A stretch of DNA of 64,000 nucleotides, from IMG/VR virus record IMGVR_UViG_2654587772_000002; one strand, given 5' to 3'. Position 1 is the stretch's first letter, and each line of letters opens with the position of its first letter. Source of the stretch: a virus (taxonomy: Duplodnaviria > Heunggongvirae > Uroviricota > Caudoviricetes). Positions 3,824 to 64,000 of this stretch are shown here, piece by piece. Made by a program: the position numbers and the translations under genes. Below the pieces are notes generated by a model. It saw nothing but the letters and a program-made list of their open reading frames with translations. It made no database searches and had not been told where the DNA came from.

Positions 3824-4713
3824 TATGCAAGCCTCACAATATAATTAAATGCGATGTTTTTAACGGTGTTTTCCGAGTTACCAGCAGCGTTAACGGTGAT
3901 GGTGTGTCCATGTGAACCAATCGCAACAGAGTGCGTATGAGCGCCAATATCAACTGTATGTGCATGCGCCCCTGCACTTGCAGCGGTGCCTGATACTGAG
4001 TGGGTGTGTGCACCAGAAGAAGGCACAGTTCCATTCCCCACCACAGTGCCGCTTGATGAGCCATCAAGCCAGTCGAAATTCATACCGCCACCATCTGGTC
4101 TCCTTAATGGAACGGTATGAGTATGTGCGCCAGCACTATTTGCAGTACCAGATACATTGTGGGTATGTGCACCTGTGTTATTCGTTGATTTAGTACCGTA
4201 ATCAAACGAAGATGTGGTTTTCGTACCCAAATCCGTATTGGATGCGCTGGCGCTGTGGGTGTGCGATTTAATGCCATCCTGTTCCAGAGACAATACGTCC
4301 CGACCACTGGCGGGTTTGCCCTTGATTGTCCAGCCACGCATATCCGGGATCACGCCTGACGGATAAGCGGCTGCAAGTTTCGGGTATGCAGATTTGTCAA
4401 AAGTCTGTCCCTGCATCAGGGCGTAACCAGACGGCACAGTATCTGATGGCCACGGATGCGGAACACCAACAGGAAGGACCTCAATATCCCCGGAACCATC
4501 AAACGAAACGTTATTAATTTTACGGGCTGTTTTCAGCTTTGTAGCCGTTGAGGCATTGCCGGACAGCTCACCAGAAATGCCACCAACAACTGTTAGATCA
4601 CCAGTTATTGTGCCGCCTGAACTTTCCAGTTTTTTAGCAACATCACTCTTAATAGAGTCGATTTCTTTTTTCAGATTAGTTATATCTGCTGGTATCGTTG
4701 TCACTGTTGCCAT
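3823..4713 (-). CDS. stf: Side tail fibre C-terminal module (lambda Stf-like) with its own start
   Basis: [52 protein letters not shown] ... GAHTH repeats ... [31 protein letters not shown] match lambda Stf C-terminus. Confidence 0.8.
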
Positions 4714-4722
4714 ATTAATTCC

Positions 4723-5001
4723 TTACGCCCATTCCCGCAGCGGTTGTTCTAATTGAACTTCAAAACCATCAAACATTTGTTGTTTCAAACTGTTGTTTAA
4801 AATACGAACATTAACGAAGAAGCCATCATTTTTAATCACTGTTGGTTCTTCGTTCTCGCCGTTTGGTATTTCGGTATATGTAACACCTACAACATCAAGA
4901 AGAATGTTGTTTTGCAGCTCTTCATTATCGTGCCAGGATATACTCTCTAAAAAAGAGTCGTATTCTGCCCTGTCTCTGAATTTCAACGTGATATCTTTCA
5001 T
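4723..5001 (-). CDS. Hypothetical protein; possible chaperone for the upstream fibre
   Basis: 92-aa ORF immediately downstream of the large fibre gene (1-nt stop/start overlap); no family recognised. Confidence 0.3.
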   Translation of the reverse strand: MKDITLKFRDRAEYDSFLESISWHDNEELQNNILLDVVGVTYTEIPNGENEEPTVIKNDGFFVNVRILNNSLKQQMFDGFEVQLEQPLREWA

Positions 5002-7901: not shown

Positions 7902-7912
7902 CAAGCATATCC

Positions 7913-8347
7913 TTATGCTATAGTCGTGTTGATGGCCATAACTGCGGTATATGTTTTTCCCACATACAGCGAGTCTTCCTGAACACAAATAATTGCGATG
8001 GGCTTATTCTCGTTATCCAGAACAACCAGAGTGTTGAATGGATAGTTTTTCCCTTCCTGCAACTGGCTTTGATCAAGGTCCATTCGGACAGTAATTATCC
8101 CGCCAGAGTAGGTTGGGACGAGGTTGATGGTGCAAAATTGACTGGTCAGTTCTGCCAACTCGAAAGTCTTTGGCAGTTCTCCAATGTCATAAGTACCATC
8201 TTCATTTTTGGTAACCAGCGAACTGGTGCCGAAAACGGCCTTGCTGATTAAAAATCGAGAGCCTTTGTTAATGGACGATTCAGCGCGTCGCTGATAGTAA
8301 TAATCCAACAACTGACTCTTATAGAGATTTGTTGAGACGTCAGACAT
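7913..8347 (-). CDS. Hypothetical virion-associated protein
   Basis: 144-aa ORF in co-directional operon immediately upstream of the tail fibre. Confidence 0.4.
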   Translation of the reverse strand: MSDVSTNLYKSQLLDYYYQRRAESSINKGSRFLISKAVFGTSSLVTKNEDGTYDIGELPKTFELAELTSQFCTINLVPTYSGGIITVRMDLDQSQLQEGKNYPFNTLVVLDNENKPIAIICVQEDSLYVGKTYTAVMAINTTIA

Positions 8348-8425
8348 GATTTTCCCTAATCAATGTTGTGAAGCCTCATTGTAAGAGAAGTAACTTGTCA
8401 CCCCGCCCTGCGGACGGGGTAATTG

Positions 8426-9265
8426 TCAGGCATCGCTATCCAGCAGCAAATCATCTGCGCGGGAGCGATCAAACGTAGGCGTTGCTTTCACAATAGTGCC
8501 GCCCGGCGTTGCAGTGATCGGGGCACTAATCGACGTAACTCCGGCAAGCGAAGTTGTATCCGAAGTTTCAAACCAGCAGTACGCTTTTTCGGTATCAGAA
8601 ATCTCGTTCAAAGTGATCATGTCGGCCTGTTCATTTACAACAACCGACAAATAGAGCGTAAGCCCATCAAACACTATATGCAGTGGCAGTAGAGGCTTTA
8701 CGAACTGATTAAACTTTCTGAGAATTTCTTCTGTAATTGCGGACTGATCTATCGTGCCAGTAATACCCATTGTCCTGGCCAGGTCGTTTATGGGAATACT
8801 GATCATCCCTCTGGAAGTCAGAAACATCTCGCCGAATGTGCCGCCAGTAGTCTCCAGTGTGCTTTCTGGTATTAGAACTGTGCCATAGGGATGACGCTCA
8901 AGGTCCACCGGTGCATATATCGGATCCCATAAAACAGAAATACCGTTAAATTCGCGGTAAATTGTCTGGTTTATAGGACGTTCAGTTCCCTTAAAGTGGA
9001 TCTCATCAAGCCGCTGTTGTAACAACATCGGAACGGAAGATGAGTTCGAGGTTCTGATAGTAAAGAACTGGCCAAGTTCATTTGTCCTGGTCTCCAGATC
9101 CTCCTTGCTCATGGAGAAAATAGACTTCCGGTTGGTAATTCGCTCCAACCATGGGTCAACAAAGGTGTCCATCATTGACTGAACCAAATCAGCCAATGAT
9201 TTATAGAGCAATGACTTTTGCTTAGCTGATGTAAGCCGGTTATTAAACCAGGAACGCTGCATCAC
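8426..9265 (-). CDS. Hypothetical virion-associated protein
   Basis: 279-aa ORF; 4-nt start/stop overlap with upstream gene. Confidence 0.4.
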   Translation of the reverse strand: MMQRSWFNNRLTSAKQKSLLYKSLADLVQSMMDTFVDPWLERITNRKSIFSMSKEDLETRTNELGQFFTIRTSNSSSVPMLLQQRLDEIHFKGTERPINQTIYREFNGISVLWDPIYAPVDLERHPYGTVLIPESTLETTGGTFGEMFLTSRGMISIPINDLARTMGITGTIDQSAITEEILRKFNQFVKPLLPLHIVFDGLTLYLSVVVNEQADMITLNEISDTEKAYCWFETSDTTSLAGVTSISAPITATPGGTIVKATPTFDRSRADDLLLDSDA

Positions 9266-10695
9266 TCCTCCTCATACGAAATATTAAAGGTGGAGCTTTC
9301 TGTATCCAGATAAACGAAATCGTAAAAGCCGTTGGACTCATTCCACTCGACAAATTCCAGATAAAAGTCGCGGAAATAACCCAGCGTTTCGATAAACGCC
9401 CAAACGTCTTTTTTCTTAATCAGGATGTACTTTCCGACGCGGTTCGGATCAAAGAAAGTTGAGTCGCGCCCAAATTTTGTTTCCAGTGCCGACTTCAGCT
9501 CATCGGTCACATTCTCAATGGTCAGGCTTGCCGATATCCGTCCGGTGATGGTTATCTTAAATGGTAGTTTTCTGACCTCTTTATAAGAGAATTTCTTGTT
9601 CAGTTCATTCGGTACCTTCTTAAAGGCAGTCAGGATCATTTCTTCAAGCTCTGACTGGCTTTTATTTGGATGCCATCCTGAAATAAATATCTTATTGATA
9701 TTCTGAACATTATAAGCACCATCTAATTTCTCTTGCTGGCCTTCGCCCCATGCCTTTACCCAGGACAGCCCCGGGATGTTACGAACCAGAAAATACGTAT
9801 AGTCCCCGCCCCATACGACCTGATCATCATAGGCAAGGTAATATTGTGCACGGTTACGTGTGATCTCCGTTGTTTCAGCATCGGTACCTGCGGTTATAGG
9901 TGTCGTTGTCTTAACTGAAATCAAATTAGCTAAATCAGCCGCAGAATCGACAGGCGTCAGGTTTTGGCCAGCAACCAGGGTTATATCGCCGTTGGTGCAC
10001 CATACCTTAAGCGTAATTGTCGAACCTTCTGGCGGTATTTGCCCAATTAGCCCATCGCCGAATCGAACCCCCAACTGCTCGGATGGTTTATAAAACTCAA
10101 CGTAGACCTGGCTTTTACTACCGGCTAACCGGAACATAGTGCTGGAAGACCACTGCGTGGTCTTCCCATCGGTTGTCACGAATACTTCCAGCTTATAGCA
10201 GACAGCAGTAAGAGCCTTTGATAACACGACTTCCAGAAATTCTTTGGCTGCCGTAACGGTATATGTCACCTCCTGGATTTCCAACTGTGCCACTTCTACC
10301 GTACCGGTGCCGTCAACCAACCTGCATACATCCATAGTCATGTAAGGGTACTGGTCGTCAGATATTAAAGGCATGTTTTTGGGGATTACCGCTGGGGCAT
10401 CTTCACTTGTGGCGGTGATCTCAATCATCCCCGATGACGGTGTTGGCTTGGTACCAACATAACTGTTCGTTTCTGCCGCAGCCAGGATAGAGGAACGCCG
10501 CGTCGCGGTCGATATAAAGCCTTCAGCCAGCGCCGCATCGGCATACTGAAAGCACCTGTAGACAATCTGGGTAATAAACAATGTCAGCATCGAGACAAAT
10601 TGAGAGCCGACAAACTTCGACCAGAATGAATCTTTCTCGACAAGCTCTTCAAACTCTGCACGAATACTGTCTTTAGTCGGTGTTGTTTTACTCAT
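9262..10695 (-). CDS. Hypothetical virion-associated protein (477 aa)
   Basis: Long clean ORF, 4-nt overlaps with both neighbours (translational coupling). Confidence 0.4.
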   Translation of the reverse strand: MSKTTPTKDSIRAEFEELVEKDSFWSKFVGSQFVSMLTLFITQIVYRCFQYADAALAEGFISTATRRSSILAAAETNSYVGTKPTPSSGMIEITATSEDAPAVIPKNMPLISDDQYPYMTMDVCRLVDGTGTVEVAQLEIQEVTYTVTAAKEFLEVVLSKALTAVCYKLEVFVTTDGKTTQWSSSTMFRLAGSKSQVYVEFYKPSEQLGVRFGDGLIGQIPPEGSTITLKVWCTNGDITLVAGQNLTPVDSAADLANLISVKTTTPITAGTDAETTEITRNRAQYYLAYDDQVVWGGDYTYFLVRNIPGLSWVKAWGEGQQEKLDGAYNVQNINKIFISGWHPNKSQSELEEMILTAFKKVPNELNKKFSYKEVRKLPFKITITGRISASLTIENVTDELKSALETKFGRDSTFFDPNRVGKYILIKKKDVWAFIETLGYFRDFYLEFVEWNESNGFYDFVYLDTESSTFNISYEEE

Positions 10696-48109: not shown

Positions 48110-49098
48110 TGTCTGGACAATACATTCCCTATCACTTAAGGCATAATAAGTCTATTGATAGAGAGATTTTTCTCGAAAGCCTAAACCTCTTAAGCAAAAG
48201 ACTAAATATTCAAGAATATACATATATAGGTTTTGGTGGTCCGATGCTTGAAGATTTTAGAATCATGCATAATCGTATCGCTCTTTCTGATATGATTTCT
48301 CTCGAAGAACAAGAGTCTACTCACATCAGACAAAAATATAATTTGCCTTATAATTGTATTGATTGTAAGCTAATATCAGCTCATGACTTTATTCTTGATT
48401 ATAGTTTTTCTAAACCATCAATAACATGGTTAGACTATGCCTCCCCGAAAAAAATACAAACGGATCTAGATGATATACACTTACTAAGTACTAAAGTAAG
48501 CTCTTTTGATATTTTGAAGGTCACCTTCCCCATAAATCCTAGTTCTTATTACCAACGTAGAGTTGGAGAAAGTTTAGATATTTTTAAAGAAGCTTTTATT
48601 AATTCATTAAAATCATTGCTTGGGAAAAAGTATCTTGATTTTAATCTTCAGATATCAAATGCAGATCTTTCAGATCGTAAGATTAAAGCTCTTTTAATAC
48701 GAATTATTACAAACGCTTTTAGATCAGCAATAGAACGTGGTCTTTCAGGACGTAAGGATAAGATTCAGTATTACCCATTATCTTTAAATCAATATAATGA
48801 TGGCAGTCATACCATGTTGACAATATCAGGTTTTTTCTCCTCAGAACAAGAATATATAGAGTTATCTAAGGCATGCGACCTTTCTAACTGGCAATTTTAT
48901 TCAACAAATTGGGAAGACGTGCAAGAAATAGCAATACCAACACTAACAATTAAAGAAAAGATAAATTTAGATAGTAAACTGCCTGATAAAGAAGCATATC
49001 AGGCAGCCGCTGAAGAGTTCTCTTTAAACGAAAATGAACGGGATAACTATTATAAATACTATAGGTTATACCCTAACTTCCAAAGAATTATGGTTTAA
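48106..49098 (+). CDS. Unknown 330-aa protein translationally coupled to the GHKL ATPase (candidate effector/specificity subunit)
   Basis: Stop/start overlap (GTGATG) with upstream gene; AT-rich; no recognisable motif. Confidence 0.6.
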   Translation: MMSGQYIPYHLRHNKSIDREIFLESLNLLSKRLNIQEYTYIGFGGPMLEDFRIMHNRIALSDMISLEEQESTHIRQKYNLPYNCIDCKLISAHDFILDYSFSKPSITWLDYASPKKIQTDLDDIHLLSTKVSSFDILKVTFPINPSSYYQRRVGESLDIFKEAFINSLKSLLGKKYLDFNLQISNADLSDRKIKALLIRIITNAFRSAIERGLSGRKDKIQYYPLSLNQYNDGSHTMLTISGFFSSEQEYIELSKACDLSNWQFYSTNWEDVQEIAIPTLTIKEKINLDSKLPDKEAYQAAAEEFSLNENERDNYYKYYRLYPNFQRIMV

Positions 49099-50217
49099 AT
49101 ATTCGGGCTGTACTCTTTTATTTAATAAATTGTACAGCCCCTTTAATATATATTCAGCAACTATTGGTGACACGCTATTTCCTATTTGTCTGAAACTATG
49201 CCATTTAGTTACATGAAAGCGAAACCAATCAGGGAAGCCTTGTAATCTAGCAGCTTCTCTTGGTGTAATCACTCTTGGATGATAAGGGTGGATCGGCCTG
49301 ACGGCTTGAAAGCTTCCTTTATCTCTAGCGGTTCCCGCCCTTAAAGTCGGGCAAAAACCATTTGGATCTAATCTTGTAGATCTTGAAATTTTATCAGTTT
49401 CCCCAAAAGATAAGGAAGCATAACGCTCTTGGACGATTTTGCTATGTAATGTTCCGGTACATCCAGATATGATATTATTTTTTAACTTAGCGATCGATTC
49501 TGTATCACCAACATTCCGAGGGATCTGCCCCCATAATTTTTCATAAAATCCCCCTTTTCGATCTTTTTTAATTGTTCGCCAACTCTCAGAGTCTGATTGC
49601 CAATTGGCATCGATAATATCTGGTAATCCATACAAAGCATCTTTTACAGTAACCGGATCAATCATTTTAGGCATAAATACTTCATCTGAAATATCAAGCT
49701 TCAATGATTTTTTTACACCGATAAAAAAATATCTAGTTCGAATAGTTGGAGCACCATAATCAGATGCTTTTACCTTGATGGGATCAAGAATATCATAATC
49801 ACCGCTAACCAAATTAAATGCTTTATTTCTAATGCCAGAATATTTCTCTTGCATAATACCTGGAACATTTTCTGCCAAAAAGAATAATGGCTGTAATTCT
49901 GATACTAAACGGTAGAAATGCATGTAAAGCTGATTCCTGCTATCATCAGGATTCCCCTTGCCTATTGAACTAAATCCTTGGCACGGAGGACCGCCAATAA
50001 TACCATCTATGGGCATATCGTTTTTAAAAAAACCCTTAATTATTTCTGCATTTAGTAAAGAAACATCTTCTTGGACGTGCAAACTTCTTGGAAAATTAAT
50101 TGCGTGAGTATTAATAGCATGTTGATCAATTTCAACTGCCATTTTAACATCAAATCCAGCACGTGCAGCACCAAGACTTAGACCTCCAACGCCAGAAAAC
50201 AAATCTATTACATTCAT
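49066..50217 (-). CDS. DNA (cytosine-5)-methyltransferase
   Basis: Motif I DLFSGVGG, motif IV GGPPCQGFS, motif VI ENV (FLAENVPG), motif X GNSVSP; about 150-aa variable target-recognition region; convergent with partner gene, 3' ends overlap 33 nt. Confidence 0.9.
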   Translation of the reverse strand: MNVIDLFSGVGGLSLGAARAGFDVKMAVEIDQHAINTHAINFPRSLHVQEDVSLLNAEIIKGFFKNDMPIDGIIGGPPCQGFSSIGKGNPDDSRNQLYMHFYRLVSELQPLFFLAENVPGIMQEKYSGIRNKAFNLVSGDYDILDPIKVKASDYGAPTIRTRYFFIGVKKSLKLDISDEVFMPKMIDPVTVKDALYGLPDIIDANWQSDSESWRTIKKDRKGGFYEKLWGQIPRNVGDTESIAKLKNNIISGCTGTLHSKIVQERYASLSFGETDKISRSTRLDPNGFCPTLRAGTARDKGSFQAVRPIHPYHPRVITPREAARLQGFPDWFRFHVTKWHSFRQIGNSVSPIVAEYILKGLYNLLNKRVQPEYLNHNSLEVRV

Positions 50218-54153: not shown

Positions 54154-54576
54154 TCAATGCACTACGACAGAATCGCTAGGAGAACCGCCGCCGCTGAAAT
54201 GCGCTTTCCGGTAAACGGCTTGGACTGCATCATCATGCGCATCAATTGCCGTACTTAACGCTTCCTGCGCCGCCAGTAATGCACGGCGTTCCAGGGTATC
54301 GAAGATGCAGAGTCGGTGACGCAGCTCGCGCGGAAGGATTGCCAGAATTGCTGGGATCAGCTTCTGAATTTTTTCCCTTTGCGCATTCGTTTCACCTTTC
54401 AACCAACGGTGATAGATATTCTGCTGATTGTTCCAGTCCTTGCCTGGAACCAGGGGCAATTCGCCGCCCCCCTGGCGCAGATATTCTTCAGTAATTGCAT
54501 TGGCTACCCATGCCTGCCTTTTTTCGGCTGCCAGGGCAAACAACACCGATTCGATGTGCTCATGCTTGATTTTCAT
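54154..54576 (-). CDS. ydaT: YdaT-like regulatory protein
   Basis: 140 aa, immediately downstream of the Cro-like gene, as in Rac. Confidence 0.65.
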   Translation of the reverse strand: MKIKHEHIESVLFALAAEKRQAWVANAITEEYLRQGGGELPLVPGKDWNNQQNIYHRWLKGETNAQREKIQKLIPAILAILPRELRHRLCIFDTLERRALLAAQEALSTAIDAHDDAVQAVYRKAHFSGGGSPSDSVVVH

Positions 54577-54598
54577 GAATCATTTGCCTCTTGATGTT

Positions 54599-54895
54599 TC
54601 AGGTATGATCAAATGAGGATTTGTTACTGTCATTTAGTTGCTTCACTGACATATTCTGCGAACAACATGCCGAACGTCGTAAATATGACCAGTCAATATC
54701 AGGACGAAGTTCTTCGCACAGCACCTCACCTCTTGTTGCACGTTCAATTGCTGGACATCTCTCGGCAGGCAATTGACGTACCCCTTTGATCCATTGATTT
54801 ACGCTTGGAGGTGATACACCTAAAAGCCTAGCCATTGCTGTTTGCCCACCGACAACAGCACAAGCTTGCTTGAATGAATAGTTCTCTTTTTTCAT
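54599..54895 (-). CDS. ydaS: Cro-like HTH regulator
   Basis: 98 aa, HTH (QTAMARLLGVSPPSVNQWIKG), divergent from the repressor gene. Confidence 0.75.
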   Translation of the reverse strand: MKKENYSFKQACAVVGGQTAMARLLGVSPPSVNQWIKGVRQLPAERCPAIERATRGEVLCEELRPDIDWSYLRRSACCSQNMSVKQLNDSNKSSFDHT

Positions 54896-54924
54896 CGAAT
54901 GAACTCCAAAAACACACAGAGATA

Positions 54925-54990
54925 TTAGGCGACGCCTAATACAAATGTCAATAGGCTATGCCTAATACAATGAGAGTAGGGATTGCCTAA
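54925..54990. promoter_or_regulatory. OR-like operator array: three TTAGGC-N3-GCCTAA-type palindromes between ydaS and racR
   Basis: ttaggcgacgcctaa (54925-54939), ataggctatgcctaa (54951-54965), gtagggattgcctaa (54976-54990); about 25-bp spacing. Confidence 0.6.
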
Positions 54991-55018
54991 TGCAATGAGC
55001 ATAGGAGAATATTAAGCA

Positions 55019-55495
55019 ATGCTTAGTGGTAAAGACTTAGGCCGAGCGATAGAGCAGGCCATTAACAAAAAAATCGCATCGGGATCCGTCAAATCAAAGG
55101 CGGAGGTCGCACGCCACTTCAAAGTCCAACCACCATCAATCTATGACTGGATTAAGAAAGGCTCCATAAGTAAAGATAAACTTCCAGAATTATGGCGTTT
55201 CTTTGCTGATGTTGTTGGTCCAGAGCATTGGGGGCTTAACGAATACCCCATACCAACCCCCACCAATCCAGATACAAAAAGTGAACTTTTAGATATAAAC
55301 AACCTTTATCAAGCAGCCTCTGATGAAATAAGAGCGATTGTAGCTTTCCTGTTATCTGGAAATGCTACAGAACCAGATTGGGTTGACCACGATGTTCGCG
55401 CCTACATAGCAGCGATGGAAATGAAAGTGGGTAAGTATCTGAAAGCTCTAGAATCTGAACGGAAAAGCCAGAACATCACAAAAACTGGAACTTAA
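55019..55495 (+). CDS. racR: Prophage repressor (CI-like)
   Basis: 158 aa, N-terminal HTH, divergent from the Cro-like gene and flanked by operator arrays. Confidence 0.75.
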   Translation: MLSGKDLGRAIEQAINKKIASGSVKSKAEVARHFKVQPPSIYDWIKKGSISKDKLPELWRFFADVVGPEHWGLNEYPIPTPTNPDTKSELLDINNLYQAASDEIRAIVAFLLSGNATEPDWVDHDVRAYIAAMEMKVGKYLKALESERKSQNITKTGT

Positions 55496-55572
55496 ACTTA
55501 TATGGTCTGACGGAAAACTCCTGGATTCCGTTATTTAACCCCCCCATCACTTTCTCCAGTCGCCATCACCTA

Positions 55573-55631
55573 TTAGGTTACGCTTAAAACATTAGGCATA
55601 GCCTATTGACAATCAATTAGGCATTACCTAT
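55573..55631. promoter_or_regulatory. OL-like operator array: three copies of the same palindrome downstream of racR
   Basis: ttaggttacgcttaa (55573-55587), ttaggcatagcctat (55592-55606), ttaggcattacctat (55617-55631). Confidence 0.55.
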
Positions 55632-55803
55632 AGTTCCAGCATACCACCCACCCCGCCCCACAGAACGCCAGGCAATACTTCGAGTTACCAGGTAGTGGTC
55701 AGGGGTTAAGTAGCCAGCCCGAGGCGTATGAACATGACGGCGGGATTCAAATTTTGCAGTGCAGCAGTTAGTTCCGCCACCCGGCGTTAAGGGGATAGAT
55801 AAG

Positions 55804-55938
55804 ATGGTGCATTACGAAGTAGTTCAGTATTTGATGGATTGTTGCGGTATCACTTACAACCAGGCTGTGCAGGCTTTACGCAGCAACGACTGGGATCTCT
55901 GGCAGGCAGAAGTCGCTATACGTAGCAACAAGATGTGA
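55804..55938 (+). CDS. ydaG: Small early-left protein (44 aa)
   Basis: MVHYEVVQYLMDCCGITYNQAVQALRSNDWDLWQAEVAIRSNKM; symbol from recalled Rac order and size. Confidence 0.45.
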   Translation: MVHYEVVQYLMDCCGITYNQAVQALRSNDWDLWQAEVAIRSNKM

Positions 55939-55948
55939 GATTCGCAAA

Positions 55949-56104
55949 ATGCAAAAAATCGACCTCGGCAACAACGAATCCCTGGTGTGCGGCGTGTTCC
56001 CCAACCAGGATGGAACGTTCACTGCCATGACGTATACCAAAAGCAAAACATTTAAAACCGAAACTGGTGCGCGCCGATGGTTGGAGAAGCACACAGTAAG
56101 CTAA
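55949..56104 (+). CDS. ydaF: Small early-left protein (51 aa)
   Basis: MQKIDLGNNESLVCGVFPNQDGTFTAMTYTKSKTFKTETGARRWLEKHTVS; overlaps sieB 3' end by 4 nt. Confidence 0.45.
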   Translation: MQKIDLGNNESLVCGVFPNQDGTFTAMTYTKSKTFKTETGARRWLEKHTVS

Positions 56105-56589
56105 CGATTAAAACGTCTACTCCTGCTGTTCCAGAATAACTTCATAAAATGGGAGTATTTTTCGGTGACGAGATAATAAGAACAGTTTGCGCTATCACTC
56201 TGATGTTGAATGATGCCCTTCCGTTCTAATTTTTTCATAACCGGGTTACGGCAAGGAGAAGTGATAATAAGATTTCCTGTTTTAAGGAAATCTTTAAATA
56301 CAGCGATTTCTTTCTCAGATAAACGAAGCAATACTCGTTGCTCTGGTAGTAATGAATAATGCTTTTGAATATGTGCTCGCAATCTTGAGAAGGAAATGGC
56401 GACCACGAAAGAAAAGGCAAAAACGATAATCTGAAAGAGCCAAGGTATTTCAGTATAAGCATTGAATGCGACAGTAAACTCTTTCGGTATCAGCCAGAGA
56501 GTGAGACCAAAAATGATAATCGTATACATAAGTCTTTCGAGTGGCTCGTTAGCAAAAAGTTTCAACAATGGAGTAAATACATCCAACAT
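56101..56589 (-). CDS. sieB: Superinfection exclusion protein B
   Basis: 162-aa product from internal start MLDVFTPLLKLFANEPLERLMYTIIIFGLTLWLIP with TM segments; antisense to the early-left operon. Confidence 0.8.
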   Translation of the reverse strand: MLDVFTPLLKLFANEPLERLMYTIIIFGLTLWLIPKEFTVAFNAYTEIPWLFQIIVFAFSFVVAISFSRLRAHIQKHYSLLPEQRVLLRLSEKEIAVFKDFLKTGNLIITSPCRNPVMKKLERKGIIQHQSDSANCSYYLVTEKYSHFMKLFWNSRSRRFNR

Positions 56590-57030
56590 ATCAATAACTC
56601 TCAACTGTAAGGGTATTGAAATGTTAACACAAGCTCTCGCTGTAGGGGTATAGCCGAGACCACCGAAGCCCGGAGGTGGTGAAATAAAACCGGGCACAAC
56701 ACGAAGGCGCATTTCCGATATCCATAAAGAGTCGGTCTTGTCTGTTAAATTTAAATGGTGGGAGTGCGCCTCCGGTTGTAAATAACGACATTGCTGTGTG
56801 TAGTCCTGGCGGCATCAGTTTTTTTCTTGAAGTTCGGCTGATGTCCGCCCTTTTTAAAGTGAATTTTGTGATGCGGTGAATGCGGCTAAGCGCACGTGGC
56901 ACAGTTAAAAGTCATGTTTGTCCTTATTGGTTTGGGTGGGAAAGCCGACTGTAATTGTTAACTGGTTGCAGTCACCTGGAGGCACCAGGCACCGCATCAA
57001 CAAAGTTCATTTGTAAAAATGGAGATAATT

Positions 57031-57252
57031 ATGATTGCACATCACTTCGGAACTGATGAAATACCACGTCAGTGTGTGACTCCTGGCGATTATGTTCTTC
57101 ATGAAGGCCGGACATATATTGCCTCGGCAAACAATATTAAAAAGCGAAAACTATATATTCGTAACCTGACCACAAAAACATGCATTACTGACCGCATGAT
57201 TAAAGTCTTCCTCGGTCGTGATGGTTTACCTGTAAAGGCGGAGTCATGGTGA
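57031..57252 (+). CDS. kilR: Cell-division inhibitor KilR
   Basis: 73-aa product [46 protein letters not shown]... as recalled for Rac KilR; ORF-track start 57019 adds 4 residues. Confidence 0.7.
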
Positions 57253-57422
57253 TGACTAAGAAAATAAAATGTGCTTACCACCTTTGCAAAAAAGACGTTG
57301 AAGAAAGCAAAGCTATTGAAAGAATGCTTCACTTCATGCACGGGATTTTATCAAAAGACGAACCGAGAAAATATTGCAGTGAAGCTTGTGCCGAAAAAGA
57401 CCAGATGGCACATGAACTTTAA
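57252..57422 (+). CDS. ydaE: Small Cys/His-rich protein YdaE-like
   Basis: 56 aa, start overlaps kilR stop (TGATG); C..H..C pattern. Confidence 0.55.
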   Translation: MTKKIKCAYHLCKKDVEESKAIERMLHFMHGILSKDEPRKYCSEACAEKDQMAHEL

Positions 57423-57496
57423 TTAATTGACTATTCGAAACTGAATTTATGCCAGAAATGGCAGGTATTCGCTCAACCTTAATTAAGGAGAAAAAC

Positions 57497-57772
57497 ATGA
57501 TTACCAATTATGAAGCCACTGTTGTAACTACCGATGACATTGTTCACGAGGTGAATCTGGAAGGAAAGCGCATTGGCTACGTAATTAAAACAGAAAATAA
57601 AGAAACCCCATTCACTGTGGTTGATATCGATGGTCCATCAGGCAACGTAAAAACACTTGATGAAGGTGTCAAAAAAATGTGCCTGGTGCATATCGGAAAG
57701 AATCTGCCCACAGAAAAAAAAGCCGAATTTCTGGCAACTCTAATTGCAATGAAATTAAAAGGTGAAATCTGA
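57497..57772 (+). CDS. racC: RacC-like protein
   Basis: 91-aa product from ATG at 57497 (MITNYEATVV...), between ydaE and recE. Confidence 0.55.
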   Translation: MITNYEATVVTTDDIVHEVNLEGKRIGYVIKTENKETPFTVVDIDGPSGNVKTLDEGVKKMCLVHIGKNLPTEKKAEFLATLIAMKLKGEI

Positions 57773-57873
57773 AAGAAATAGCCTGCGTATGGCGCAGGCT
57801 ATGAACAGTGTGTATCCGGCAAGATCATTCACTGAACAAAACGAATTTTAATCTGAGTTGAGGTTAAAAAACA

Positions 57874-60800
57874 ATGAGCACAAAACCACTCTTCCTGTTA
57901 CGGAAAGCGAAAAAATCATCCGGTGAACCTGACGTCGTCCTGTGGGCAAGCAACGATTTTGAATCGACCTGTGCCACTCTGGACTACCTGATCGTTAAGT
58001 CAGGTAAAAAACTGAGCAGCTATTTTAAAGCTGTTGCCACGAATTTTCCTGTCGTTAATGACCTGCCCGCTGAAGGTGAGATCGATTTTACCTGGAGTGA
58101 ACGCTATCAACTCAGCAAAGACTCCATGACATGGGAACTAAAACCGGGAGCAGCACCAGACAACGCTCACTATCAAGGCAATACCAACGTCAACGGCGAA
58201 GACATGACTGAGATTGAGGAGAATATGCTACTCCCAATTTCTGGCCAGGAACTGCCCATTCGTTGGCTTGCTCAACACGGTAGCGAAAAACCGGTAACGC
58301 ACGTTTCACGCGACGGACTCCAGGCATTACACATTGCTCGGGCTGAAGAACTACCGGCTGTTACTGCCCTGGCTGTTTCCCACAAAACCAGCCTGCTCGA
58401 CCCGCTGGAAATTCGCGAACTCCACAAACTGGTTCGTGACACTGACAAAGTTTTCCCTAATCCTGGTAATTCAAACCTGGGACTGATAACTGCTTTTTTC
58501 GAAGCATACCTGAACGCTGACTACACCGATCGAGGACTGCTGACAAAAGAGTGGATGAAGGGTAATCGTGTTTCACACATCACTCGCACGGCTTCCGGTG
58601 CTAATGCTGGCGGCGGAAACCTCACCGATCGCGGCGAAGGTTTCGTACACGATCTGACGTCACTGGCGCGCGACGTAGCCACTGGCGTACTGGCCCGTTC
58701 AATGGATCTGGACATCTATAACCTTCATCCGGCACACGCTAAACGCATTGAGGAAATTATCGCTGAAAATAAACCGCCCTTTTCTGTTTTCCGCGACAAA
58801 TTCATCACCATGCCTGGCGGGCTGGATTATTCCCGCGCCATCGTGGTTGCGTCCGTAAAAGAAGCACCAATTGGGATCGAGGTCATCCCCGCGCACGTCA
58901 CTGAATATCTGAACAAAGTACTGACTGAAACCGATCATGCCAACCCTGATCCGGAAATCGTGGATATTGCCTGCGGTCGCTCCTCTGCCCCGATGCCGCA
59001 GCGAGTAACAGAAGAAGGAAAACAGGATGATGAAGAAAAACCGCAACCATCTGGAACAACGGCAGTTGAACAGGGAGAGGCTGAAACAATGGAACCGGAC
59101 GCAACTGAACATCATCAGGACACGCAGCCGCTGGATGCTCAGTCACAGGTAAATTCTGTTGATGCGAAATATCAGGAACTGCGGGCAGAACTCCATGAAG
59201 CCCGGAAAAACATTCCATCAAAAAATCCTGTCGATGCCGATAAATTGCTTGCTGCATCACGTGGTGAATTTGTTGACGGAATTAGCGACCCAGACGATCC
59301 GAAATGGGTAAAGGGGATCCAGACTCGCGATTGTGTGTACCAGAACCAGCCAGAAACGGAAAAAACCAGCCCGGATATGAATCAACCTGAGCCAGTAGTG
59401 CAACAGGAACCGGAAATAGCCTGCAATGCCTGCGGCCAGACTGGCGGGGATAACTGCCCTGACTGTGGTGCGGTGATGGGCGACGCAACATACCAGGAAA
59501 CATTCGATGAAGAGAGTCAGGTTGAAGCTAAGGAAAATGATCCGGAGGAAATGGAAGGCGCTGAACATCCGCACAATGAGAATGCTGGCAGCGATCCGCA
59601 TCGTGATTGCAGTGATGAAACTGGTGAAGCGTCAGCTCCTGTAGCAACTGAAATCATGTGGCCGTCATATTTCGAGCCTGGCCGCTATGAAAACCTCCCG
59701 AACGAGGTTTATCACTCCGCCAACGGAATAAGCAGCACGATGCTGAAGGATGCCCGTATCAGCCTGATGTATTACCATGGACGGCACATTGCCGGAACTA
59801 TTCCGAACGAGGAAAGTGATGCACTGCTGCGTGGGCGGATCATTCACAGCTATGTTCTGGAAACGGATAAATTCGCTGATGAATATGCCATTCCGGTACC
59901 GGTTCCTGAATATGTGGTTACTACTTCTAACGAACTGATCGCCATCATTAAAAAACACAATGCCAGTCTGCCAGCACTGATGACACCAGAGCAGATGAAA
60001 GAGTGGATCGAAAGCTACAACAGCACTCTTATACAGCCACTGTCTGTAAGTGCCGGGGCCGAAGAAACAGGCATCCTTTACGGTTCGCTTCCGGTGGAAT
60101 TTCGGCGTATTCCTGAGGGGGAAAAACACACAGCATCAGCAATGAAAGCCTGTATTAAAGAATACAACGCAAGCCTCCCTCCTCTGTTGAAAACCAGTGG
60201 AGCACGGGAGCAGCTTCTGGATCAAATTGAAACTGTAGCCCCAGAACTAGCAAAAAAAGAACGTGCTAAATCTTTGCCTTACAACATCAGTGGCACAAAA
60301 GAGCAATTAACCGAAATCGCACGGCAAATTCGCCCGGAACTGGTGACTCTGGAGGACTGGCAAAAACGCCAGCAAGAAGAAAACGCCGGGAAAACGTTTA
60401 TCAGTCCGGATATGTATGAACAGGCAAAAAATATTCACGCGGCACTACAAAACAATACCGATGCAGCAAGGTTACTCAACCACCCGGATCGCAAATCTGA
60501 AATCAGCTATTTCGGGTTTGATGAAGAAACCGGGCTGGAAATCAGGGTCCGTCCTGATATCGAAATCCGGCTGCCATACGAAAGCATTTGCGCTGACGTG
60601 AAGTCAGTCAGCCTCGGTTATGTGCGACAGGAACGACTTAAAGATCGCCTGCACCGTGAAATTATTGAACGTGATTATCATCTCAGCGCCGCAATGTATT
60701 GCGATGTGGCAAACCTGGACAAATTTTTCTGGATCTTCGTCAACAAAGATGCTGGCTATCACTGGGTGGCAGTCGTGGAAGCCTCGCAGGAACTCCTGGA

Positions 60801-60945
60801 ACTTGGTCGACAGGAATATCGCCGGACGCTACGCCAGATAAACGAAGCCCTGGAGACAAACAACTGGCCAGCACCGATTACCGAAAGTTATACCGACGAA
60901 TTAAACGACTTTGATCTTCGTCGTCTTGAAGCACTGAGCATCTGA
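57874..60945 (+). CDS. recE: RecE-family 5'-3' exonuclease (exonuclease VIII-like), 1023 aa
   Basis: N-terminus [36 protein letters not shown] as recalled for RecE; acidic linker; C-terminal PD-(D/E)xK-like region (..[20 protein letters not shown]..). Confidence 0.8.
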
Positions 60946-60956
60946 GGAAGGACACA

Positions 60957-62009
60957 ATGAACGAATTAACTCAACAAGAAAATATTAACTCTAATGTTGC
61001 GGTTTTCAGCCCTCAGTCCCTGGCTGCAATTCAGACATTTTCCCAGGTAATGGCTTCCGGCATGGCTACTGTACCGGAACACCTCCGGGGAAATCCATCA
61101 GACTGCATGGCCATCACCATGCAGGCGATGCAGTGGCAAATGAACCCTTACGCAGTAGCTCAGAAAACTTTCGTTGTGAATGGTGTGCTCGGATATGAAG
61201 CGCAACTGGTTAATGCCGTAATCAGTACTCGTGGGCCGCTAACCGGGCGTATTGAATATGACTGGTTCGGGCCGTGGGAAAAAATTATCGGGAAATTTGA
61301 AATCAGGAAGAGCGACAAAGGGAAAGAATATCGTGTACCTGGCTGGAAGCTGGCCGATGAAAACGGGATCGGTGTTCGTGTCCAGGCAACACTACGCGGC
61401 GAAAGTAAACCACGCGTACTGGAATTACTTCTGGCGCAGGCCAGAACACGTAACTCAACGCTATGGGCCGACGATCCTCGCCAGCAGCTTGCCTATCTGG
61501 CGCTGAAACGCTGGGCGCGCCTTTATTGCCCCGAAGTGATTCTTGGAGTGTACACCAGGGACGAACTGGACGAGCCACAGGAAAAAATCATTAATCCGGT
61601 TCAGGAACATAAAAACACTTCCGCTTGCCGCGCTGAACGTGAAACAACAATTATTGAGCAGGATGCCGGGGAAAACTGGATCGATGCTTTCCGTGAACGT
61701 ATTGAGCAGGCACAAAGCACCGGGGAAACAACAGCACTTCGCCAGGAAGTGGAAGATCATAAAAATACACTTGGCGCTCTCTATACGGAACTTAAAGGAA
61801 AAGTGGTTCAGCGTCATCACCGTCTCAATGCTATTGCCCGTATCGAGAAGATGATAAATGACCTACCTTCTTCAGGTGATCCAGAAGCAGAACAAAAATT
61901 TACTGCTCTGGAAAATACGCTGAATGCTGCCCGGCCACATCTGGGTGAATTATATGAGGCGTATAAAACGACACTGACAGATATGAAACCAGAATATATC
62001 GGCTCCTGA
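60957..62009 (+). CDS. recT: RecT/Red-beta-family single-strand annealing protein
   Basis: Position directly after exonuclease gene; conserved C-terminal pattern (..NSTLWADDPRQQLAYLALKRWARLYCPEV..). Confidence 0.7.
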   Translation: MNELTQQENINSNVAVFSPQSLAAIQTFSQVMASGMATVPEHLRGNPSDCMAITMQAMQWQMNPYAVAQKTFVVNGVLGYEAQLVNAVISTRGPLTGRIEYDWFGPWEKIIGKFEIRKSDKGKEYRVPGWKLADENGIGVRVQATLRGESKPRVLELLLAQARTRNSTLWADDPRQQLAYLALKRWARLYCPEVILGVYTRDELDEPQEKIINPVQEHKNTSACRAERETTIIEQDAGENWIDAFRERIEQAQSTGETTALRQEVEDHKNTLGALYTELKGKVVQRHHRLNAIARIEKMINDLPSSGDPEAEQKFTALENTLNAARPHLGELYEAYKTTLTDMKPEYIGS

Positions 62010-62072
62010 TATTGACTTTGGCGGTGTAGCCTCACCGCCATCACAAAATTTTATTTTATGAGAGAAAAGACA

Positions 62073-62267
62073 ATGCGGTATGAAAAAGTCAAACCATGCC
62101 CTTTTTGTGGTTGTCTATCAGTAACGGTAAAAGCCATTTCAGGATATTACCGCGCGAAGTGTAACGGATGCGAATCCCGAACCGGCTATGGTGGAAGTGA
62201 AAAAGAAGCACTCGAACGATGGAATAAACGAACCACTGGAAATAATAATGGAGGTGTTCATGTATAA
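62073..62267 (+). CDS. ralR: Restriction alleviation protein Lar/RalR
   Basis: 64 aa, MRY..VKPCPFCGC.SVTVKAISGYYRAKCNGCESRTGYGGSEKEALERWNKRT Cys4 motif. Confidence 0.8.
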   Translation: MRYEKVKPCPFCGCLSVTVKAISGYYRAKCNGCESRTGYGGSEKEALERWNKRTTGNNNGGVHV

Positions 62268-62448
62268 AATTACCGCCACTATTGAAAAGGAAGGTGGCAC
62301 TCCTACTAACTGGACAAGGTACTCAAAAACAAAATTAACCAAATCAGAATGCGAAAAAATGCTCTCAGGTAAAAAAGAAGCAGGCGGTTCCAGAGAGCAG
62401 AAAGTAAAACTGATAAATTTTAATTGCGAGAAACTTCAGTCGTCGTGA
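62260..62448 (+). CDS. ydaC: YdaC-like small protein
   Basis: 62-aa ORF from ATG at 62260 overlapping ralR 3' end. Confidence 0.45.
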   Translation: MYKITATIEKEGGTPTNWTRYSKTKLTKSECEKMLSGKKEAGGSREQKVKLINFNCEKLQSS

Positions 62449-62547
62449 ATTGCATTGTATTCAAATTAAAACTTCATAGCTGATTATTAATAATCAACAT
62501 CGGGCGTCAATTTCAGTCTAACATTGGCGCCTGCCAGAGGTGATGCG

Positions 62548-62763
62548 ATGGCACAAGTAATCTTTAATGAAGAGTGGATGGTTGAATACGGCCTGATGCT
62601 TCGCACTGGTCTGGGGGCCAGACAAATTGAAGCATACCGCCAGAACTGTTGGGTGGAAGGCTTCCACTTCAAACGAGTATCTCCTTTAGGGAAGCCAGAC
62701 AGTAAGCGAGGGATTATCTGGTACAACTATCCAAAGATAAATCAGTTTATCAAAGACTCATGA
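62548..62763 (+). CDS. xisR: Excisionase
   Basis: 71-aa basic protein immediately upstream of and abutting the integrase gene. Confidence 0.65.
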
Positions 62764-62764
62764 T

Positions 62765-64000
62765 ATGTCTAAATTACCAACAGGTGTCGAGATTCGAGGT
62801 AAATACATTCGCATCTGGTTCATGTTTCGAGGAAAACGATGTCGGGAAACATTGAAAGGCTGGGAGGTTACTAACAGTAACATTAAAAAGGCCGGGAATT
62901 TAAGAGCGTTGATAGTTCATGAAATCAACTCCGGTGAATTTGAGTATTTAAGACGTTTTCCCCAGTCCAGCACTGGGGCAAAAATGGTGACAACGAGGGT
63001 CATAAAAACGTTCGGGGAGCTTTGTGATATCTGGACAAAAATTAAAGAGACAGAGTTAACAACAAACACAATGAAGAAAACGAAATCACAATTAAAAACA
63101 CTCAGGATAATAATTTGTGAGAGTACACCTATATCACATATTCGTTATAGCGATATCTTAAACTACCGGAATGAACTGCTGCATGGAGAAACGCTTTACC
63201 TGGATAATCCAAGATCCAACAAAAAAGGAAGAACCGTGCGCACAGTTGATAACTATATCGCCCTGCTCTGTTCGTTGTTACGTTTTGCGTATCAGTCGGG
63301 ATTTATATCAACCAAACCATTTGAAGGAGTAAAAAAATTACAGCGAAACAGAATAAAGCCTGATCCGTTATCTAAAACAGAATTCAATGCATTAATGGAA
63401 AGTGAAAAAGGACAGAGCCAGAACTTGTGGAAATTTGCCGTTTACTCCGGGCTTCGTCACGGGGAACTGGCTGCTCTGGCGTGGGAGGATGTGGATTTCG
63501 AGAAGGGAATTGTGAATGTCAGAAGAAACCTGACGATACTTGATATGTTCGGTCCCCCAAAAACAAATGCCGGGATCCGGACGGTAACATTACTACAGCC
63601 AGCTCTTGAAGCACTGAAGGAGCAATACAAACTGACCGGGCATCATCGCAAAAGCGAAATCACTTTTTATCATCGGGAGTACGGCAGAACCGAAAAGCAA
63701 AAACTGCATTTTGTTTTCATGCCCAGGATGTGTAACGGAAAACAGAAACCTTATTACTCGGTAAGCAGTTTGGGTGCGAGATGGAATGCAGCAGTAAAAC
63801 GTGCTGGTATTCGCCGCCGTAATCCGTACCATACGCGACATACTTTTGCCTGCTGGCTGTTGACGGCAGGAGCGAACCCGGCATTTATAGCCAGCCAGAT
63901 GGGGCATGAAACTGCGCAGATGGTGTATGAAATTTACGGTATGTGGATTGATGACATGAACGACGAACAGGTAGCTATGTTGAATGCGCGGTTATCGTAG
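62765..64000 (+). CDS. intR: Tyrosine-type site-specific integrase
   Basis: 411 aa, C-terminal catalytic region (..RHGELAALAWEDVDF..YHTRHTFACWLLTAGANPAFIASQMGHE..); stop codon is the last triplet of the window. Confidence 0.85.
   Translation: MSKLPTGVEIRGKYIRIWFMFRGKRCRETLKGWEVTNSNIKKAGNLRALIVHEINSGEFEYLRRFPQSSTGAKMVTTRVIKTFGELCDIWTKIKETELTTNTMKKTKSQLKTLRIIICESTPISHIRYSDILNYRNELLHGETLYLDNPRSNKKGRTVRTVDNYIALLCSLLRFAYQSGFISTKPFEGVKKLQRNRIKPDPLSKTEFNALMESEKGQSQNLWKFAVYSGLRHGELAALAWEDVDFEKGIVNVRRNLTILDMFGPPKTNAGIRTVTLLQPALEALKEQYKLTGHHRKSEITFYHREYGRTEKQKLHFVFMPRMCNGKQKPYYSVSSLGARWNAAVKRAGIRRRNPYHTRHTFACWLLTAGANPAFIASQMGHETAQMVYEIYGMWIDDMNDEQVAMLNARLS

Follow-up and report, generated by a model that had tools for sequence, protein, structure and literature searches.

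A mosaic recE allele and its RecT-family partner in an Escherichia coli Rac-type prophage

At which points does a prophage RecE-RecT pair exchange its parts, and which parts stay together? This question is raised by the recET operon in virus record IMGVR_UViG_2654587772_000002 (Caudoviricetes), of which one stretch of 64,000 nucleotides (nt), here called the window, was analysed. The window is an Escherichia coli Rac-type prophage at ttcA. Its recE allele encodes 1023 residues and the recT-family gene behind it 350 residues, both from an ATG start codon (Table 1). The initial annotation had described the larger protein as starting like the RecE of the Rac prophage, and had proposed that a nuclease-annealase cassette was swapped on a Rac backbone. 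We found that residues 1-585 of this RecE differ from those of E. coli K-12 RecE at two positions (BLASTP). In blastn comparisons with K-12 Rac, a left zone (54156-59643) is 99.0% identical, a middle zone (59644-62018) shows no similarity and a right zone (62019-64000) is 96.0% identical. The cassette measures about 2.4 kb here in place of 1.64 kb in K-12.

Pairwise alignment with K-12 RecE and RecT had been proposed as the way to locate a mosaic breakpoint, and it put the left break at about 59630, after ...SDETGE, at RecE codon 585/586. On the right, the break falls within a hairpin beginning 10 nt past the recT stop codon, just upstream of ralR; the hairpin is kept in K-12 except for loop differences. 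The left break coincides with the experimentally defined border of the nuclease domain, which a review gives as residues 564-866 of RecE (PMC11611040); the customary laboratory truncation of RecE begins at residue 588 (PMC3945230). Judged from these alignments, the RecE allele is a natural domain chimera, with the nuclease domain and the whole of RecT replaced exactly at a domain boundary. Full-length collinearity and high identity with K-12 RecE and RecT, which would have spoken against a mosaic, were not found: the nuclease is 25-29% identical and similarity to RecT is undetectable. The blastn zones and breaks thus bear out a swapped cassette; the swap may have run in either direction, and comparative data suggest that the K-12 allele may be the derived chimera.

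The part of RecE in common with K-12 contains a Pfam Exonuc_VIII (PF06630) domain at residues 2-178 (E 7.6e-98) and, ahead of the nuclease region, the acidic linker that the initial annotation had noticed. The NCBIfam equivalog NF007259 (exodeoxyribonuclease VIII) matches the allele with 1535 bits against a cut-off of 1269, a call that is due to the N-terminus held in common with K-12. The role of the N-terminal extension is given as unknown in the review cited above (PMC11611040). A CxxC-x7-CxxC motif at residues 517-531 of the linker resembles a zinc ribbon, and its match to Pfam Zn_ribbon_3 is not significant (E 1.3). A Pfam scan of the middle region of RecE at E <= 10 gave noise only.

A PD-(D/E)xK-type nuclease region had been noted at the end of the protein, and a match to the PDDEXK-like family DUF3799 (PF12684) at residues 836-1000 (E 2.2e-13) agrees with this. 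In a phmmer search against PDB, the RecE structure 3H4R is the sole match (E 2.3e-7), in two stretches around an insertion. By these two matches the domain belongs to the RecE-fold PD-(D/E)XK nucleases. BLASTP also aligns the region with K-12 RecE in two pieces around the insertion, at the identity given above. Collinearity with high identity over residues 588-866, as between orthologs, was not found, and there is no DNA similarity. The residues H658, D895, D908 and K910 align with K-12 H652, D748, D759 and K761, and vary little or not at all across the family. An AlphaFold 2 (AF2) model of the nuclease, built from a 16-sequence alignment, has a mean predicted local distance difference test score (pLDDT) of 73.8. 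Compared with K-12, the domain is 162 residues longer, owing to a helical insertion and an acidic tail.

The annealase had been described as clearly different from K-12 RecT at its N-terminus. It does differ there, but the difference spans the whole length: BLASTP against K-12 RecT gave nothing significant over the entire 350 residues (best E 0.36), and a comparison by hhalign of the family alignment with K-12 RecT detected nothing (probability 0.3). The window RecT and K-12 RecT are connected solely via the Pfam RecT profile (PF03837), which matches residues 30-209 of the former (E 4.6e-43, 147.5 bits against a cut-off of 24); like the Exonuc_VIII and DUF3799 matches of RecE, this match lies well outside what chance would give. 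No NCBIfam family matches the annealase at E <= 0.001, and neither pairwise similarity nor the NCBIfam RecT models identify it as an ortholog of K-12 RecT. We infer from family membership that it would bind and anneal single-stranded DNA. Its AF2 model (38 sequences, pLDDT 70) consists of a core (residues 17-193), a linker (194-238) and a helical bundle (239-350). The claim that the protein shows the C-terminal pattern of RecT/Red-beta did not hold up, since its C-terminal 140 residues match no Pfam family (scan at E <= 10, noise only) and contain a separate helical domain that is absent from K-12 RecT. A Foldseek search of the model against PDB gave no match at E <= 0.001, and thus showed no similarity to LiRecT/Red-beta or to a Red-beta-like C-terminal domain. 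The family of this C-terminal domain is small, with 50 representative clusters among 1.84 billion proteins, and the domain invariably stands at the end of the protein. Ten of the longer representatives were scanned and each has a PF03837 match; the longest of them are RecE-RecT deletion fusions. Most enterobacterial homologues of the annealase are 46-59% identical to it (about 98% coverage) and the two closest 82-83%; homologues of 345-370 residues are common across Enterobacterales and often labelled 'enterohemolysin'.

Which parts of the pair travel together was examined in 80 loci encoding relatives of the window RecT, fetched from species-representative genomes and scored for five segments each. 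Pairwise identities were correlated over the 52 loci having all five segments (1326 pairs), and the comparison was repeated with normalised scores on 48 loci. Exonuclease and annealase had been taken for matched partners in the initial annotation. For the annealase core this failed, as core and nuclease hardly correlate (r 0.18-0.19); it is the C-terminal domain of RecT alone that tracks the nuclease (r 0.78-0.83 with its three segments), and this domain correlates weakly with its own core (r 0.22). On the DNA, the core sits between the two. Normalised scores gave the same picture, with values of 0.68 for the C-terminal domain against the RecE N-terminal extension and 0.27 against downstream DNA. 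When loci were grouped at a threshold of 0.6, the adjusted Rand index was 0.77 for nuclease versus C-terminal domain and 0.05 for nuclease versus core. At this threshold no pair of loci is discordant for nuclease and C-terminal domain in either direction, and 304 pairs have a similar nuclease and a dissimilar core. The clade of the window nuclease (five loci) has one private type of C-terminal domain and two types of core. Escherichia phage Rac-SA53 (KU052037) is a concrete case: its nuclease is 98.8% identical to that of the window and the last ~60 residues of its RecT are identical, but its RecT is 64% identical overall, the core having a non-homologous patch of ~260 bp at window positions 61223-61482. 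Its RecE N-terminal extension has a different patch at residues ~100-220.

At the level of classes, a Gifsy-type nuclease and the window-type C-terminal domain occur together in 63 of the 80 loci, in the Gifsy-type RecET layout that the window also shows (an N-extended RecE, an insertion-bearing nuclease and a 345-370-residue RecT with a helical C-terminal domain). In none of the 80 does this C-terminal domain accompany a nuclease of the YqaJ or K-12 type, though some loci with such nucleases have RecT cores 62-79% identical to that of the window. With those cores, loci having another nuclease, either a short K-12-like RecE (53% identical to K-12 RecE 595-862) or a downstream YqaJ, carry other C-terminal domains. 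Three Pseudomonas loci (L065, L075 and L084) have a core 64-69% identical to that of the window, their own C-terminal tail, and a YqaJ-type exonuclease gene after recT, not before it (in L065, recT at ~5935-6876 and the next open reading frame (ORF) at 6873-7538). These YqaJ-flanked loci imply that the same annealase core serves three nuclease classes. In a single locus, from Serratia sp. Ag1 (L067, ~4694-7026), a Gifsy-type nuclease (49% identity) is found with a RecT tail that has no match to the window-type domain; either the domain has diverged very far here or the association truly fails in this locus. A further apparent counter-example with the 3' end of recT only (H102) was rejected as a deletion derivative.

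From its family relationships, this recET operon of an E. coli Rac-type prophage very probably specifies a single-strand-annealing recombinase with two components, a Gifsy-type nuclease and its annealase. In line with what is known of RecET and lambda Red, recE and recT would be transcribed together once the early-left operon of Rac is derepressed. The nuclease, presumably a 5'-3' exonuclease on double-stranded DNA like those of Salmonella Gifsy and phage mEp237, would resect DNA ends into 3' single-stranded tails, and RecT would coat such a tail and anneal it to complementary single-stranded DNA. Going by the covariation and by analogy with Red-beta and lambda Exo, the C-terminal domain of RecT would tether the annealase to its own nuclease, and possibly to the single-stranded DNA-binding protein (SSB) of the host, so that this domain, not the annealing core, would carry partner specificity. 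The C-terminal domain of Red-beta binds lambda Exo as well as SSB, and whether the same applies to RecT is an open question in the 2023 review (PMC11611040). ETfinder, published in 2026, describes RecT C-termini as an 'extended helical bundle' and predicts RecT-RecE contacts near the RecT C-terminus (PMC13490951). The covariation fits a partner-docking role and can also be explained neutrally; by analogy, the odds that the domain docks directly on the nuclease are about even.

Several points weigh against the docking proposal. All functional statements made here derive from sequence, models and analogy; the two AF2 models reach a moderate pLDDT of 70-74, and no structural neighbour was found for that of RecT. 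The independent events are few, with about four to five nuclease clusters. The N-terminal extension also correlates with the C-terminal domain, so part of the covariation signal reflects a common backbone. Two groups of short RecE-type nucleases, still ~72% identical to one another, sit beside two unrelated types of C-terminal domain. In a scan of viral contigs, a K-12 nuclease-domain query gave only Rac copies of 99-100% identity, and an alignment led by a Pantoea sequence was used instead. Among the 80 viral contigs with a short K-12-type nuclease found in this way, 65 carry a Pantoea-type C-terminal domain (that of L035), which has no detectable relation to the window-type domain. In nine others, a short, insertion-free nuclease is accompanied by a distant relative (30-40% identity) of the window C-terminal domain.

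The same covariation is predicted by neutral, patch-wise gene conversion of the RecT core: conserved blocks at the two ends of the core would permit its replacement by homologous recombination, and the C-terminal domain would bind SSB or another factor and not the nuclease. We consider this possible but the less probable explanation. It is favoured by the ~260-bp patch of Rac-SA53, which lies inside the core with DNA like that of the window on either side, by the near-invariant blocks that flank a variable core centre in the family alignment, by the correlation of the N-terminal extension, by the pairing of similar short nucleases with unrelated C-terminal domains and by the binding of SSB to the Red-beta C-terminal domain (PMC11611040). 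However, the C-terminal domain follows the nuclease (0.80-0.83), from which over 630 bp separate it, more closely than it follows the core, the downstream DNA or the N-terminal extension. Loci of the YqaJ or short RecE type, moreover, have other C-terminal domains despite their similar cores. Nor would SSB be expected to cause such a divergence of C-terminal domains, its tail being almost constant across Enterobacterales.

If the C-terminal domain does dock on the nuclease, a possible platform is the helical insertion of the latter. This insertion is all-helical in the AF2 model (pLDDT 83-95) and holds a T-x3-A-x-IK-x-YNASLP-x-L motif in three repeats (Smith-Waterman score of 54 against 25 +/- 4.7 for shuffled sequences, reached in 1 of 2000). 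The segment between the two compared nuclease blocks (residues 681-870) has 190 residues in 49 related loci and 92 residues in five, each from a different species (L038, L048, L060, L063 and L082; nuclease genes at ~4940-5965 of each locus). The half-length form is consistent with the insertion having arisen by internal duplication. No Pfam family (E <= 10, noise only) and no PDB fold matches the insertion, and a word-indexed search with it alone returned fragments only, those with a named source being annotated as partial RecE-type exonucleases. A SAP/HeH identity of the repeats, considered from the look of the motif, was dropped, as no tool, Pfam family or fold supports it. As a dock for the RecT domain, the insertion has in its favour a high correlation with that domain (r 0.82-0.83), its confident fold in the model and its conservation across the family. 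Yet all three nuclease segments correlate with the C-terminal domain equally well (0.78-0.83), the five loci with half an insertion keep the domain, and the combination of helix and YNASLP repeat resembles SAP/HeH-like DNA-binding motifs. The nine viral contigs with insertion-less nucleases indicate that the C-terminal-domain family is not exclusive to insertion-bearing nucleases and that docking, if it occurs, would probably not depend on the insertion alone. We therefore regard the insertion dock as improbable.

Among 5426 complete E. coli genomes, 192 have the window-type cassette (158 at >=80% coverage, 92 at >=99% identity) and 1751 the K-12-type one. The K-12 type is thus nine times commoner, though such counts tell little about which allele is ancestral and hence about the direction of the swap. 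Several observations point to a reversed history, in which the window architecture is the ordinary enterobacterial RecET and K-12 RecE is the chimera, a compact stand-alone nuclease having been grafted with its RecT onto the N-terminal extension. All but one of 52 loci with a Gifsy-type nuclease have an in-frame N-terminal extension of 239-808 residues (138 residues in the exception). Most loci show detectable similarity to the N-terminal and middle regions of RecE in parts of this extension, and mEp237 RecE has PF06630 as well. Outside E. coli Rac, the searches found the K-12-type nuclease to be closest (52-54% identity) to stand-alone proteins of ~270 residues. This state, with 0-28 residues upstream, is found in all 80 viral contigs and in six of six species-representative genomes. 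Finally, K-12 RecT has its nearest relatives outside Rac among actinophage RecTs (46% identity). Against this history, the searches found no compact donor pairing a close K-12-type nuclease with a K-12-type RecT. The comparison suggests that K-12 RecE, rather than the window allele, is the graft, and we hold the reversed history to be evenly poised.

The element is neither rare nor undescribed. RefSeq annotates the proteins as recE (exodeoxyribonuclease VIII, WP_001605350.1) and as a RecT family recombinase (WP_001004422.1), and the cassette belongs to the genetically characterised Gifsy-type recET group. All its components are from known families: RecE-fold nucleases, RecT annealases, Gifsy-type recET and the Rac prophage. 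The Salmonella Gifsy orthologues, under repression in lysogens, suppress recombination defects upon activation (PMC3121763), and this result is the sole functional evidence for Gifsy-type recET. The nuclease of the window is 52% identical to that of Gifsy-1 RecE (99% coverage), 51-52% to those of mEp237 and HK225 and ~70% to those of some Salmonella proteins; the RecTs of mEp237 and HK225 are 49% identical over 97-99% of their length. Gifsy-1, Gifsy-2, mEp237 and HK225 are alike in having an N-terminal extension with PF06630, an insertion-bearing PF12684 nuclease and a long-tailed RecT of 350-370 residues. The window differs from them in that its nuclease and C-terminal domain form a sub-clade of their own (five loci, 69-87% alike by normalised alignment score) and in that its N-terminal extension is the one of K-12 Rac, not of Gifsy. 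With K-12 Rac it has in common the prophage family, the ttcA site, the operon position, RecE residues 1-585, the nuclease fold, the catalytic His/Asp/Asp/Lys and PF03837. The K-12 genes recE and recT overlap, whereas those of the window are 11 nt apart, and K-12 RecT lacks the extra linker and the 112-residue C-terminal domain. Lambda Exo and Red-beta work alike, as a toroidal PD-(D/E)XK 5'-3' exonuclease and an annealase made of core, linker and helical C-terminal domain, which docks on the exonuclease (complex in PDB 6M9K) and on SSB (PMC11611040); for the window pair, docking is putative. The lambda nuclease is of a different family (YqaJ/lambda Exo versus RecE/DUF3799), and the C-terminal domains have no sequence similarity or detected fold similarity.

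A RecT of 100% identity, with 96% DNA identity over 4 kb, is found in a record named 'Actinobacillus phage vB_Apl-pPE4' (PP818812). This record, attributed to Actinobacillus pleuropneumoniae (L003, PP818812.1), has a Rac-type early region with kil, ydaT, recE and recT at 4842-10541, which is 93-96% identical in DNA to window positions 56845-62497. The host attribution looks doubtful; the sequence may instead stem from contamination or from induction of an E. coli prophage.

Mildly new are the precise swap at a domain boundary, the independent exchange of the RecT core, the hint at partner specificity and the possible graft origin of K-12 RecE. The full proposal is that the RecT core is freely exchangeable among types of nuclease, that the co-inherited C-terminal domain sets partner specificity, that the N-terminal 585 residues of RecE are portable across two unrelated pairs and that K-12 RecE is a graft; taken as a whole it is tentative, and we place it a little short of an even call. 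If true, it would answer the question in the 2023 review of whether RecT-family annealases bind their exonuclease via the C-terminal domain. In full-length K-12 RecE, the N-terminal extension is reported to boost linear-linear recombination (PMC11611040). Since the natural break at residues 585/586 coincides with the laboratory truncation at residue 588 (PMC3945230), the allele lends itself directly to testing whether the extension acts independently of the nuclease. For practical use, it would offer a RecET pair native to E. coli in which the N-terminal extension of K-12 RecE is combined with another nuclease and annealase. More generally, natural mosaics are a cheap and testable lead to the seat of partner specificity in RecT-family recombinases. 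The novelty is limited by the presence of the proteins in RefSeq and phage records, by the characterisation of the family in Salmonella and by the recent description of diverse RecT C-termini (PMC13490951).

The features of the operon are listed in Table 1. The 11-nt spacer between recE and recT holds a Shine-Dalgarno sequence. As a scan of the + strand inside the gene pair found no promoter-like or terminator-like site, the two genes are most simply read as co-transcribed from upstream. The genes racR, ydaS/T, sieB, kilR and ydaE flank the pair upstream, and ralR (Lar), DUF1187, xisR and intR downstream. This gene order and the 96-99% DNA identity to K-12 Rac on either side of the cassette identify the Rac-type prophage. 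The window stops within intR. The 4136-bp recET region is 100% identical to that of E. coli ST2747, in which ttcA itself is visible next to the locus, as in K-12.

Table 1. Coordinates of features of the recET operon in the window
Feature	Position	Strand	Basis
recE allele: K-12-type N-terminal extension and Gifsy-type RecE-fold nuclease	57874..60945	+	ORF, PF06630, PF12684, NF007259, RefSeq WP_001605350.1
RecE residues 1-585: N-terminal extension, including Exonuc_VIII domain and acidic linker	57874..59628	+	BLASTP, DNA identity to K-12
Cys4 motif C517-x2-C520-x7-C528-x2-C531 in RecE linker	59422..59466	+	Read from sequence; common to K-12 RecE
Replaced cassette: nuclease domain and entire recT	59629..62018	+	blastn gap 59644-62018, junction alignments
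RecE residues 586-1023: PD-(D/E)XK nuclease domain, RecE fold, Gifsy type	59629..60942	+	
Catalytic residues H658; D895; D908; K910	59845-59847; 60556-60558; 60595-60597; 60601-60603	+	
Helical insertion region, RecE residues ~672-834 (main block ~672-785)	59887..60375	+	Alignment with K-12 RecE; absent there
Acidic C-terminal tail of RecE, conserved, absent from K-12 RecE	60886..60942	+	Family alignment; helix predicted, low confidence
Shine-Dalgarno GGAAGGA for recT	60946..60952	+	4 nt ahead of ATG; sequence
recT-family annealase, 350 residues	60957..62009	+	ORF, Pfam RecT E 4.6e-43, RefSeq WP_001004422.1
RecT core, DNA-binding and annealing domain by family (residues 30-209)	61044..61583	+	PF03837; AF2 core residues 17-193
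Predicted disordered linker, RecT residues 194-238	61536..61670	+	AF2 pLDDT < 50; most variable alignment region
Helical C-terminal domain of RecT, residues 239-350 (112 residues); proposed nuclease or SSB docking	61671..62006	+	AF2 helix bundle, pLDDT 77-88
Hairpin GGCGGTGTAGCCTCACCGCC at right junction, where K-12 Rac similarity resumes	62019..62038	+	Junction alignment

Much of K-12 Rac is decayed, and the recET pair of the window might likewise be a non-functional remnant. Decayed derivatives of the cassette do exist, and it has been inactivated repeatedly in other strains: by insertions of the IS21 family (ISEc62, IS100) in recE (H14, H17-H20), by an internal recE-recT deletion that leaves two pseudogenes (L086), and by in-frame RecE-RecT fusions (P0272, P0278). 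In the window, however, both ORFs are intact and the catalytic residues are kept, and the cassette is conserved at >=99% in 92 genomes. The prophage around it encodes terminase, portal, coat and tail proteins and is related to isolated phages (98.7% identity). Decay of the pair is highly improbable.

Positions 1-54000 of the window contain these large structural ORFs (up to 1142 residues) and trkG, unlike the defective K-12 Rac. Positions 30001-54000 are 98.7% identical over 70% of the 24 kb to isolated Escherichia phages (vB_EcoS-666R9 and relatives), and the prophage may be inducible. It also bears a 383-residue ORF on the - strand (49066-50217), which is a DNA cytosine methyltransferase by annotation of the identical ST2747 locus.

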